Shown here: in pieces, positions 47,568 through 51,483 of the stretch | Position numbering within the stretch: position 1 is the stretch's first letter | Layout of the letters: each line of letters opens with the position of its first letter | Assembly (NCBI RefSeq): GCF_050920415.1 | Contig: NZ_CP169309.1 | DNA: 64,000 bases | Direction: 5' to 3' (one strand) | Origin: Escherichia coli | Lineage (GTDB): Bacteria; Pseudomonadota; Gammaproteobacteria; Enterobacterales; Enterobacteriaceae | Notes under the pieces: model-generated | What the model saw: only the letters and a program-made list of their open reading frames with translations | Told to the model about the DNA's origin: nothing | Database searches by the model: none | Program-made: the position numbers and the translations under genes

Positions 47568-49042
47568 AAAAGGTTCCTTGAAGTATGTCCCACGCCGTGG
47601 ACGGTACTTACATTAAGGCACAACAGGACAAAATGGTCAATTCTTCGTTATGTAAAAAAGCGTCAGTGGATACATATTTTAATGTTATGGAAGTTAATTT
47701 AATTATTTACAATGATGATGTAATAATGATGAATTAACATGATAAACGTAATAATTCATTAATCAGGGTTATTTTGTTTGATATATATCAATTGGAACTT
47801 TCATATGACACTTAGAATCAATGCTCTCTATAGTGATGAATAATCATCATTCGAAGTCAGGTGGGATGCCTGTCTGAATACACCTCCTTCAGGATGTGGG
47901 GGATTCTGCTGAGCATCTATGAAACTGAATGCAACCTATATAAAAATACGTGATAAATGGTGGGGGCTTCCGCTGTTCCTGCCTTCTTTAATCTTGCCCA
48001 TTTTCGCCCATATTAATACTTTCGCGCATATTTCTTCCGGTGAGGTTTTTCTCTTTTACCTGCCTTTGGCACTGATGATCAGCATGATGATGTTTTTCAG
48101 CTGGGCGGCATTGCCAGGGATCGCCTTAGGGATTTTTGTTCGCAAATATGCAGAGCTGGGTATTTACGAAACGCTCTCATTAACAGCTAATTTTATTATC
48201 ATTATCATTCTCTGTTGGGGCGGTTACAGGGTCTTTACTCCCCGGCGTAACAACGTTTCACATGGTGATACCCGTTTAATTGCCCAGCGTATATTCTGGC
48301 AGATTGTATTTCCTGCAACGCTGTTTCTAATACTTTTCCAATTTGCTGCGTTTGTTGGATTACTGGCGAGCAGAGAAAATCTGGTCGGCGTCATGCCCTT
48401 TAACCTCGGGACCTTAATCAATTATCAGGCCTTGCTGGTAGGTAATCTGATTGGTGTCCCGCTGTGCTATTTCATCATTCGGGTGGTGCGAAATCCGTTT
48501 TATTTACGCAGCTATTATTCGCAATTAAAACAGCAAGTTGATGTCAAAGTCACCAAAAAAGAGTTCGCGCTCTGGCTACTGGCATTAGGTGCGTTGTTGT
48601 TGCTGTTATGCATGCCGTTAAATGAAAAAAGCACGATTTTCAGCACCAATTATACCTTGTCATTATTGCTACCCCTGATGATGTGGGGAGCCATGCGCTA
48701 TGGTTATAAGTTGATTTCGCTGCTCTGGGCGGTCGTGCTGATGATTAGCATCCACAGCTATCAAAATTACATTCCCATTTATCCTGGCTATACCACGCAA
48801 CTGACCATAACCTCCTCCAGTTATCTGGTATTCTCTTTTATTGTCAATTATATGGCTGTACTGGCAACCCGTCAGCGAGCGGTAGTCAGACGCATTCAGC
48901 GGCTTGCGTATGTGGACCCGGTGGTTCATCTGCCAAATGTTCGCGCCCTGAATCGCGCGTTGCGTGATGCCCCCTGGTCTGCGCTTTGTTATTTACGCAT
49001 TGAACCGCCCCGGGTTTCCTGGAGAGTGTTTTATCTGTGAAC

Positions 49043-49930
49043 TCAGGCTGCCAGATCATTGTTTCCGATGGAAGCATAATAAGCTTTTTCTGCTTCTGCC
49101 GGAGGAGTATGGCCCAGCCTTCCCAGCAATCGTCGATTGTTATACCAGTCCACCCACGTGAGTGTGGCCAGTTCCACTTCTGCACGGTTTTTCCAGCTCT
49201 TACGGTGTATTACCTCCGCTTTGTAAAGACCATTGATGCTCTCAGCCATCGCGTTGTCATACGAGTCGCCTGTACTCCCTGTTGATGCCAGCAGTTTTGC
49301 TTCTTTTAGTCGCTCCGTATAGGCCAGTGACACATACTGAGAGCCTTTATCGCTGTGATGGATGGTGCCAGACGGACGACGGGCCCACAACGCCTGCTCC
49401 AGCGCATCCAGCACGAATGTCGTTTCCATAGACGATGAGACCCGCCACCCCACGATGTATCCGGCAAACACATCAATGATGAACGCCACATAGACGAAGC
49501 CCTGCCATGTGCTGACGTAAGTAAAATCAGCCACCCACAGCTGGTCAGGACGTTCTGCCACGAACTGACGGTTTACGCGGTCACCTGTGGCAACGGTTTT
49601 CCGGCTGACGGTAGTGCGGACCTTTTTACCCCGGAGAACACCGGCAAGTCCCATAACCGCCATGAGGCGCGCCACTGTACATCTGGCCACCCTGATTCCT
49701 TCCCGTAACAACTGACGCCAGACTTTACGCACACCGTACACCTGATGATTTTCATCGTATACGCGCTGTATCTCTCTCTTCAGCCAGTCATCGCGCTGCG
49801 CACGGGCACTGCGTTTATCAGGATGATGCCGCTGCTGCTGACAATGGTAATACGTTGACGGGGCAATATGCAGTTCACTGCATACCGGTCCGACCCCGTA
49901 CTGCTCACGCAGCTTATCCAGCAGTGGCAT
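49043..49930 (-). CDS. IS3-family transposase OrfB (DDE)
   Basis: 295 aa with DDE integrase-core residues. Confidence 0.8.
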   Translation of the reverse strand: MPLLDKLREQYGVGPVCSELHIAPSTYYHCQQQRHHPDKRSARAQRDDWLKREIQRVYDENHQVYGVRKVWRQLLREGIRVARCTVARLMAVMGLAGVLRGKKVRTTVSRKTVATGDRVNRQFVAERPDQLWVADFTYVSTWQGFVYVAFIIDVFAGYIVGWRVSSSMETTFVLDALEQALWARRPSGTIHHSDKGSQYVSLAYTERLKEAKLLASTGSTGDSYDNAMAESINGLYKAEVIHRKSWKNRAEVELATLTWVDWYNNRRLLGRLGHTPPAEAEKAYYASIGNNDLAA

Positions 49931-50256
49931 TATTTTTTCCAGAGGCGGTCGAACTCCGCCTTCGCAAAATAAGCGGAAGCCTGGCGAAGGATATCGTTAC
50001 TGCGGCGCAGTTCACGATTTTCACGTTCCAGCTCTTTCAGACGCTGACGTTCAGCGGTGGTGAGCCCACCATCACCGCTCCCGGTATCCCTCTCATGCTG
50101 GCGAACCCAGACACGCAGAGTCTCTGGCGTACAGCCAATCTTTGGAGCAATGGAACAAATTGCCGCCCATTGTGAGTCATATTCGCCCTGACTTTCCAGA
50201 ACCATACGAACTGCGCGTTGACGGACTTCGGGGGAAAAACGAGTATTTTTAGTCAT
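49930..50256 (-). CDS. IS3-family transposase OrfA
   Basis: 108 aa HTH/leucine-zipper; [19 protein letters not shown]... Confidence 0.8.
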
Positions 50257-51483
50257 CCTGTTTACCTCTTTCTCAGGAAGTTTAGTCTCCAGGATTTCCG
50301 GGGCGGTTCACATCCCCGGCATGGAAATGCTGGTTAAGAACTATGGCATCATGCTACGGATTCAATACAAGCAAAAACTTTCTCACTGGCTGTCACCATT
50401 GCTGGAACCGGGTGAAGATGTTTATCAGCTTTCGGGTAACGATCTCGCGCTGCGACTGAATACAGAAGCGCACCAGGAGCGCATTACCGCACTGGATAGC
50501 CATCTCAAGCAATTTCGTTTCTTTTGGGATGGAATGCCGATGCAACCGCAGATTGGCGTCAGTTACTGCTATGTGCGCTCGCCAGTGAATCATATCTACT
50601 TACTGCTGGGAGAGCTAAATACGGTTGCTGAACTCTCCATCGTGACCAACGCCCCGGAAAATATGCAGCGTCGCGGGGCAATGTATTTGCAACGCGAATT
50701 GAAAGATAAAGTCGCGATGATGAATCGGCTACAGCAGGCGCTGGAACACAACCATTTTTTCCTGATGGCCCAGCCGATTACCGGTATGCGTGGTGATGTC
50801 TACCATGAGATCCTTCTGCGCATGAAAGGTGATAATGATGAACTGATCAGCCCCGACAGCTTCTTGCCGGTCGCGCACGAATTTGGTTTATCGTCGAGTA
50901 TCGACATGTGGGTCATTGAGCATACGCTGCAATTTATGGCTGAAAACAGAGCGAAGATGCCCGCTCACCGTTTTGCTATTAATCTGTCGCCAACCTCGGT
51001 ATGTCAGGCTCGTTTTCCATTTGAAGTCAGTCAGTTGCTGGCTAAATATCAAATTGAAGCGTGGCAACTTATTTTTGAAGTCACCGAAAGTAATGCTCTG
51101 ACCAATGTTAAGCAGGCGCAGATCACCTTGCAGCATCTTCAGGAATTAGGCTGCCAGATTGCGATTGATGATTTCGGAACCGGCTACGCCAGCTATGCAC
51201 GGCTTAAAAATGTGAATGCCGATCTGCTTAAAATTGACGGCAGTTTTATCCGCAATATTGTGTCAAATAGTCTGGATTATCAGATAGTGGCGTCGATTTG
51301 CCACCTGGCGCGAATGAAGAAAATGCTGGTAGTGGCAGAGTACGTTGAAAACGAAGAGATCCGCGAGGCGGTGCTCTCTTTGGGGATCGATTATATGCAG
51401 GGTTATCTTATTGGTAAGCCGCAACCGTTAATTGATACGCTGAATGAAATCGAACCCATTCGCGAAAGTGCCTGAATAATGCG

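Follow-up and report, generated by a model that had tools for sequence, protein, structure and literature searches.

Probable inactivation of pdeF (yfgF) by an IS629-type insertion sequence in an Escherichia coli chromosome

IS629 is an insertion sequence whose isoforms are IS1203 and IS3411, whose sub-types differ by 4-5% and which generates target-site duplications (TSDs) of 3-4 bp (PMC3271280). In EHEC O157:H7 and other STEC, it was found to cause strain-level polymorphic knockouts (PMC9943667, PMC3271280). Another system close to the present locus is the decay of c-di-GMP genes in Shigella, in which DGC pseudogenes with nonsense mutations before the catalytic domain were reported to yield active proteins from internal starts (PMC11327459). 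A 2026 preprint named pdeB, pdeD and pdeG together with pdeH, pdeK and pdeN as the intact PDEs of S. flexneri 2457T; pdeF is not named. The locus described here lies in a 64-kb stretch of an E. coli chromosome (the window), in which pdeF, whose product has been described as anaerobically induced (PMC5635695), is interrupted. The case resembles the knockouts in EHEC O157:H7 and STEC in the element family and in the strain-level inactivation of a gene, but here the interrupted gene is pdeF, and the nearest complete relative of the host is a Korean food isolate. No O157 markers were seen within the window. Our analysis makes it very probable that an active IS629-type (IS3-family) element jumped into the pdeF gene on the chromosome, within codon 361, duplicating the trinucleotide CAT.

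A script run on the sequence placed a complete, intact element of 1310 bp at 49001-50310 on the minus strand, which probably belongs to the IS629/IS1203/IS3411 isoforms of the IS3 family; for the name "IS629 isoform" we relied on how RefSeq annotates a copy with 96.4% identity and on the literature. The element starts with TGAACCGCCCCGG and finishes with CCGGGGCGGTTCA, giving TG...CA ends (TGAACC...GGTTCA), and its terminal inverted repeats match at 13 of 13 positions and then at 22 of 25. Both transposase genes are open. In particular, orfA (49930-50256, minus strand) encodes a 108-residue N-terminal part with an HTH_Tnp_1 domain (PF01527, 1.4e-12), and orfB (49043-49930, minus strand) encodes 295 residues from its own ATG with an rve/DDE integrase core (PF00665, 3.7e-27). 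PF13276 (HTH_21) was also among the Pfam matches of these ORFs, and OrfB scored 313.9 bits against the NCBIfam IS3 family transposase model NF033516, which has a cut-off of 160. The two genes overlap by ATGA next to an A6 slippery run (49933-49938), and translation of the -1 fusion at this run gave a predicted frameshift product, OrfAB, of 404 residues. An ALIL pseudoknot, the predicted stimulator of -1 frameshifting in this IS group, was matched at 49859-49975 on the minus strand (Rfam RF01497, full model 1-117, 120.9 bits where the gathering score is 50, E-value of 5.7e-32).

The 1310-bp length, the terminal repeats beginning with TGAACCGCCCCGG, the orfA/orfB overlap with its -1 frameshift, the ALIL pseudoknot, the rve/DDE transposase and the 3-bp TSD are all shared with IS629, IS1203 and IS3411. 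The general features of the IS3 family were also present, namely a length within ~1.2-1.55 kb, imperfect inverted repeats, TG...CA ends, orfA and orfB overlapping in -1 phase, an HTH in OrfA, a DDE core in OrfB and a short (3-4 bp) target duplication, here CAT/CAT. The preliminary description had proposed a 1310-bp IS3-family element at these coordinates and had named two points on which its reading could fail, the ends of the element and the identity of the flanking gene. The ORF layout, the rve/DDE core and the pseudoknot all fit the proposal, and the first of these points was settled in its favor by the TG...CA ends, the 22/25 inverted repeats and the TSD.

Over its full length, the element was 96.4% identical to a copy in O157 Sakai annotated as "IS1203 Family: IS3 / IS629 transposase", and because the two differ by 47 substitutions (3.6%), the sub-type in the window is, as judged from these alignments, different from that of the Sakai copy. 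Copies with 100% identity were found in several E. coli genomes, where they are annotated as "IS3 family transposase" and occur in up to 22 places per record. Copies with at least 99% identity were found in only 43 records, and those with 95-99% identity in 5601 records. Related elements were present in 4250 of the 5426 complete E. coli genomes and were full-length in 3042 of them (56%). It had been suggested earlier that an IS629-type element pointed to a non-K-12 pathotype background; elements of this type, which 56% of complete E. coli genomes carry in full length, say little about pathotype, and beyond pointing away from K-12 the suggestion is weak.

The element is flanked by two copies of CAT, at 48998-49000 on the left and 50311-50313 on the right, as the preliminary description had noted, whereas a single CAT is found at the uninterrupted site in three alleles, those of E. 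coli MFDS1022581 (L003), ERR10854182 (L002) and K-12. When the element and one CAT were removed in silico, joining 47919-49000 to 50314-51475, the frame was restored, as had been claimed, and the resulting 2244 nt encoded 747 amino acids with the terminal stop codon as the only stop. In DNA, the restored gene was 100% identical to the intact, RefSeq-annotated pdeF of MFDS1022581 (WP_000772752.1), and its product was identical to K-12 PdeF (b2503, NP_416998.1) at 741 of 747 residues (99.2%). The gene order, guaA-yfgI-yfgH-yfgG / pdeF / ppx-ppk, is as in K-12. These identities and the synteny, on which the orthology call is based since no PdeF-specific NCBIfam model reaches its cut-off, settled the second point, that the flanking ORFs are pdeF.

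After excision, the 747-residue product had the MASE1 - degenerate GGDEF - EAL architecture of PdeF. In the Pfam search, MASE1 spanned residues 15-320 and EAL residues 498-730, and at E <= 0.01 there was no match to the degenerate GGDEF domain; the bounds of the GGDEF-like region were therefore taken from the start of the NCBIfam GGDEF-EAL profile alignments, at residues ~287-317. The degenerate motif SGNDL lies at residues 401-405 and is the same motif tabulated for pdeF (PMC11327459). The break in codon 361 lies ~40 residues beyond MASE1 and upstream of both SGNDL and the whole EAL domain. Since the GGDEF-EAL profiles begin at ~287-317, the break falls inside the degenerate GGDEF-like region and not exactly on a domain boundary. 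The element had been described as parting MASE1 from the GGDEF-like and EAL regions; MASE1 and EAL are indeed separated, but the break falls within the GGDEF-like region rather than before it.

The closest relative of the window is MFDS1022581, an E. coli from animal-source food, which was 100% identical to it over 45885-49000 and 50311-64000. On the uninterrupted pdeF of this strain, both alignments share exactly 3 bp (CAT), and the strain is a natural empty site with an intact 747-residue pdeF. By BLAST, the junction between the element and pdeF was found in none of 5,426 complete E. coli genomes, a collection that did not include Shigella chromosomes, and an exact-sequence search for the 373-residue PdeF-IS fusion ORF returned no record. 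Because of its absence from these 5,426 genomes, the insertion looks recent and strain-private. The single junction match of at least 80%, in E. coli F2_81, was rejected, as the insertion is at another site.

The F2_81 chromosome (NZ_CP043542.1) also carries a pdeF split by a 1310-bp element of the same group and orientation with a 3-bp TSD, and RefSeq calls both halves pseudogenes. In contrast to the window, its element lies at pdeF nt ~1816, inside EAL, has the TSD AAA and is only 94.7% identical; on these differences, we regard it as an independent event. A different lesion was found in the Logan assembly ERR10854182, in which ~13 kb is otherwise identical to the window and codon 353 of pdeF is an amber codon. 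This amber is recurrent, lies eight codons upstream of the IS break and falls within a Dcm site, CCTGG. The pdeF genes of L006-L009, which are also split, were not counted, because guaA and ppk were fragmented as well, which marks these as error-rich assemblies.

The recurrence of pdeF lesions raises the question of whether selection favored the insertion, with PdeF loss being adaptive in the lineage. The independent codon-353 amber on otherwise identical DNA, the separate IS629-like insertion in F2_81 and the hundreds of distinct truncated PdeF products on record would all be consistent with this explanation. However, deamination of 5-methylcytosine at a Dcm site turns CCTGG into CCTAG, exactly the change that creates the amber, so its recurrence needs no selection, and selection was set aside as its cause in favor of this mutational hotspot. 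Additionally, contig ends or error-rich assemblies account for many of the "partial" products, four genera have conserved PdeF at full length (Escherichia, Citrobacter, Salmonella and Enterobacter, with 12,932 sequences in the main E. coli cluster), and none of the 5426 complete genomes has the present insertion. We therefore consider a selected insertion unlikely. In a broader reading, inactivation of pdeF would be preferred and selected time and again in certain host-associated E. coli clones, as the element at codon 361 and the amber at 353, two independent lesions on otherwise identical DNA, might suggest. The remaining fragments, a MASE1-only membrane protein and perhaps a re-initiated soluble EAL protein, might also keep some signaling activity, in which case the allele would rewire anaerobic c-di-GMP control instead of just deleting it. 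We hold this joint reading to be improbable.

A connection with Shigella was also considered. The case resembles the decay of c-di-GMP genes in Shigella in that a turnover gene was lost by mutation and in that pdeF is not among the genes named as intact PDEs of 2457T. In contrast to Shigella decay, the lineage of the window has no wider decay in the region, and its sister strain has an intact pdeF. A Shigella origin of the window was rejected, as both flanks are 100% identical to the food isolate MFDS1022581, and neither membership in a Shigella or EIEC lineage nor a lesion shared with one was found among the complete E. coli genomes and S. flexneri draft contigs compared. In some S. flexneri draft assemblies, contigs break inside pdeF at positions other than the IS junction; like the missing mention of pdeF in the 2457T list, this is evidence of an indirect kind. 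The preliminary description had presented pdeF loss as a known theme of Shigella and EIEC; this gained little from our comparison, in which a literature search on pdeF/yfgF pseudogenes in Shigella returned no source calling it such a theme and the nearest relative was a food E. coli with the gene intact.

Under the favored explanation, transposition into codon 361 split pdeF into two fragments. The 5' part (47919-49000, plus strand, 100% identical to MFDS1022581 pdeF) comprises codons 1-360 and 2 nt of codon 361 and carries MASE1 and the first ~40 GGDEF-like residues. Its open frame enters the element and stops at 49038-49040, giving 373 residues, of which the final 12 are IS-encoded. The 3' part (50314-51475, plus strand, likewise 100% identical) begins with the final nt of codon 361, ends at the stop codon and contains the remaining GGDEF-like region and the complete EAL domain, with the motifs EILLR, N, ExxE, DDFGTGYAS, K, E and QGY all present. 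Upstream of pdeF, a perfect match to the FNR consensus, TTGATATATATCAA, was found at 47778-47791 on the plus strand; it is the sole match in the 64-kb window, where 0.10 would be expected by chance, and is conserved in K-12. With TAGAAT at 47813-47818 as the candidate -10 element, we infer a promoter spacing of the class II FNR type. The 5' fragment, a MASE1 sensor with 12 IS residues, stays behind the predicted FNR-box promoter, and the 3' fragment is severed from promoter, start codon and membrane anchor. The outcome would probably be a null or near-null allele of an anaerobically induced c-di-GMP phosphodiesterase, with one anoxic c-di-GMP sink presumably removed. If the IS-excision enhancer (iee) is present in the host, the knockout may be reversible. 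The genes of the element are antisense to pdeF. As pdeF forms a monocistronic unit, flanked by a divergent yfgG upstream and a convergent ppx downstream, polarity on neighboring genes should not be expected.

The allele would not be null if read-through from the FNR promoter, or a start within the element, were followed by re-initiation at Met364 (ATG 50321), where a 384-residue ORF begins in the 3' part. A soluble GGDEF-like/EAL protein might then degrade c-di-GMP without MASE1 control, and the 373-residue membrane protein might persist. The 384-residue ORF is intact with every EAL motif that was checked, the FNR-box promoter is intact, and internal starts have a precedent in the Shigella DGC pseudogenes (PMC11327459); residual activity of the 3' ORF is possible by analogy with these active products, given the complete EAL domain. 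Against this, no sigma-70-like site was found on the plus strand across the entire element and the downstream junction, no Shine-Dalgarno-like sequence was recognizable before ATG 50321 or 50327, and the break deprives the GGDEF-like fold of its first ~40 residues. A transcript from the FNR promoter would also have to pass through 1.3 kb of antisense IS sequence that is not translated, and untranslated RNA is normally open to Rho-dependent termination. In the absence of an outward promoter from the element into the 3' fragment, we rate continued expression as very unlikely. That the element was misplaced by the assembler is scarcely credible: related genomes carry it in multiple copies and the junction was seen in no other genome, but the precise ends, together with the clean duplication of 3 bp that are present just once at the empty site, indicate real transposition rather than misjoining, and the window holds only one copy, so there is no local collapse.

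Taken as an insertion by transposition, the event is an ordinary gene knockout with nothing mechanistically new, and there is no sign of any role other than simple insertional inactivation. For annotation, the two halves of pdeF are one pseudogene interrupted by a mobile element and not two genes. The junction, in turn, is of use in strain typing as a private marker by which the source can be told from the near-identical MFDS1022581. It is mildly interesting that pdeF has been hit repeatedly by different lesions, at least one of which is explained by a mutational hotspot. As for phenotype, the c-di-GMP phosphodiesterase that is induced anaerobically is probably missing from the strain, and the locus adds one further case of strain-level gene loss caused by an IS629-type element in E. 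coli, a role for which these elements are well known.

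The window was read from 47700 to 51700 and the junctions were analyzed with a script, which bore out every coordinate in the preliminary description of an IS3-family insertion in pdeF (yfgF). The inserted block occupied 49001-50310, exactly 1310 bp, with a left end of TGAACCGCCCCGG and a right end of CCGGGGCGGTTCA; its TG...CA termini were typical of the IS3 family, and its terminal inverted repeats matched at 13 of 13 positions and then at 22 of 25. The target duplication CAT was present directly outside the element at 48998-49000 and 50311-50313. Removal of the element and one CAT (47919-49000 joined to 50314-51475) restored the frame as proposed, giving 2244 nt and 747 residues with a single terminal stop. 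The restored protein shared 741 of 747 residues with K-12 PdeF (b2503) in unchanged synteny, which identified the split ORFs as pdeF, and K-12 contained only one CAT at the insertion site.

The empty site was found in E. coli MFDS1022581, from animal-source food in Korea, in which an intact pdeF (WP_000772752.1, 2244 nt) lies between yfgG and ppx. BLAST alignment of the window with this locus revealed 100% identity at 1160-6063, 45885-49000 and 50311-64000, the last covering 13.7 kb on the right-hand side of the element. The alignments 45885-49000 and 50311-64000 overlapped in MFDS1022581 by exactly 3 bp, CAT. This overlap is direct evidence that the element arrived by true transposition and duplicated 3 bp of its target. 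The observation of an IS3-family insertion in pdeF was thus confirmed, and its interpretation as an inactivation is supported.

The chromosomal backbone at 50311-64000 carried an uncommon set of alleles: identity over this stretch reached 99% in only three of the 5,426 complete E. coli genomes (MFDS1022581 at 100%, N96 at 99.6%, and a third genome), followed among the strains listed by RMDEC465 at 98.9% and others at approximately 97.7-98.4%. Additionally, a prophage of approximately 39.8 kb (6047-45901) was integrated at the guaA 3' end, with the direct repeat ATTGAGTGGGAATGATT (17 bp) as its boundaries at 6047-6063 and 45885-45901; it was missing in MFDS1022581, which is otherwise identical, and in the Logan contig of ERR10854182. 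Over its first 25 kb it aligned at 97.9% identity to 93% of Escherichia phage phiv142-3, and further close matches were PAS61, ZX5, TL-2011b and O157 typing phages 9 and 10. These phages are epsilon15/phiV10-like podoviruses, which use a guaA attachment site.

The element contained two open minus-strand frames overlapping by ATGA: orfA (50256-49930, 108 aa, HTH_Tnp_1) and orfB (49930-49043, 295 aa, HTH_21 and rve integrase core), the product of which scored 313.9 bits against the NCBIfam IS3-family transposase model (cut-off 160). A full-length ALIL pseudoknot (Rfam; 49975-49859, 120.9 bits, gathering score 50, E 5.7e-32), which RefSeq also annotates on elements of this kind, was detected, and a -1 shift at an A6 run (49933-49938) is predicted to yield a 404-aa OrfAB. 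The element was collinear with and 96.4% identical, without gaps, to a Sakai copy annotated as 'IS1203 Family: IS3 / IS629 transposase OrfB'. Because IS629 sub-types are 4-5% apart, this identity places it, on sequence comparison, as an IS629-group isoform of a sub-type other than that of the Sakai copy; known isoforms include IS1203 and IS3411, and IS629 generates target duplications of 3-4 bp (PMC3271280). Several E. coli genomes, of crow, cattle and bovine-faeces origin, carried 100% identical copies in up to 22 places per record, so the element looks like a live one. The suggestion that an IS629-type element indicates a non-K-12 pathotype background held in part: K-12 is excluded, but pathotype is hardly informed, as 4250 of 5426 complete E. 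coli genomes carried IS629-type sequence (full-length in 3042).

The pdeF-IS junction was not present in any of the 5,426 complete E. coli genomes, and a look-up of the fusion ORF across 153 billion gene positions gave no record, so the allele appears to be recent and private to its strain. Only this strain-specific allele is new; its two components, like the phenomenon itself, were already known. An independent 1310-bp element of the same group and orientation (94.7% identical) was located in E. coli F2_81 (NZ_CP043542.1, 4034-5343) at pdeF nt ~1816, within the EAL domain, with the target duplication AAA; foreign DNA with a dprA-like gene adjoins yfgI in that strain. The Logan contig of ERR10854182 was otherwise identical to the window over approximately 13 kb but carried TAG instead of TGG at pdeF codon 353 (5968-5970 of that contig), eight codons upstream of the insertion site. 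This amber codon was also present in at least two further alleles, 42-71 nt apart from each other (records L005 and L010-L012), and thus in at least three divergent backgrounds, one otherwise identical to the window, which keeps Trp353 (48975-48977). The codon lies in CCTGG (48973-48977), a Dcm (CCWGG) site, where deamination of the bottom-strand methylated cytosine converts CCTGG to CCTAG, the classic amber-hotspot mechanism. Codon 353 is therefore probably a mutational hotspot yielding recurrent pdeF nulls, and no selection is needed to explain the recurrence. Hundreds of distinct truncated PdeF products were present in the protein database, many of them contig-end partials or from error-rich assemblies, and full-length PdeF was conserved in Escherichia, Citrobacter, Salmonella and Enterobacter.

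Loss of pdeF had also been called a known theme in Shigella/EIEC lineages, and we found no paper saying so for pdeF. A 2026 preprint lists pdeB, D, G, H, K and N as the intact phosphodiesterase genes of S. flexneri 2457T, omitting pdeF, and S. flexneri draft contigs ended within pdeF at nt 1179/1180 (GCA_026145745.1 and SRR35387875) and nt 1382 (GCA_054485705.1). These breaks would be expected if IS elements interrupt pdeF there, and no IS sequence was visible at those contig ends; together with the preprint list, they lend indirect support to pdeF loss in Shigella. The window is not from a Shigella/EIEC-type lineage.

In the restored PdeF, Pfam detected MASE1 (residues 15-320) and EAL (498-730) but not the GGDEF-like middle, which is too degenerate. 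NCBIfam GGDEF-EAL profiles aligned from residues ~287-317, and the degenerate motif SGNDL, tabulated for pdeF (PMC11327459), was found at residues 401-405. The element follows base 2 of codon 361, approximately 40 residues beyond MASE1 and just within the GGDEF-like fold, so that every EAL motif lies downstream of it. With 12 codons contributed by the element, the 5' ORF totals 373 aa, and the 3' ORF spans 384 aa from Met364 (ATG 50321), including the whole EAL domain.

A perfect FNR box, TTGATATATATCAA (47778-47791), was the sole match in the 64-kb window (0.10 expected by chance) and is kept in K-12, which fits the described anaerobic induction of PdeF (PMC5635695). The MASE1 fragment would still be driven by the pdeF promoter. 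A predicted 50-aa ORF (47585-47737, plus strand; RefSeq hypothetical protein WP_000017552.1), called in many assemblies and without a Pfam match, lies between yfgG and pdeF. The catalytic half was cut off from the pdeF promoter by the 1.3-kb antisense element; the promoter scan gave no plus-strand promoter-like site within the element or at the junction, and sequence reading no Shine-Dalgarno sequence before ATG 50321. Residual activity of this half through re-initiation has a low probability, although active products from internal starts were shown for Shigella DGC pseudogenes (PMC11327459). The insertion is most probably a simple knockout of the membrane-anchored anaerobic c-di-GMP phosphodiesterase. 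No polarity on neighbours is expected, since pdeF is monocistronic and lies between a divergent upstream gene and a convergent downstream one. As IEE promotes IS629 excision in strains carrying it (PMC9943667), the lesion could be reversible.
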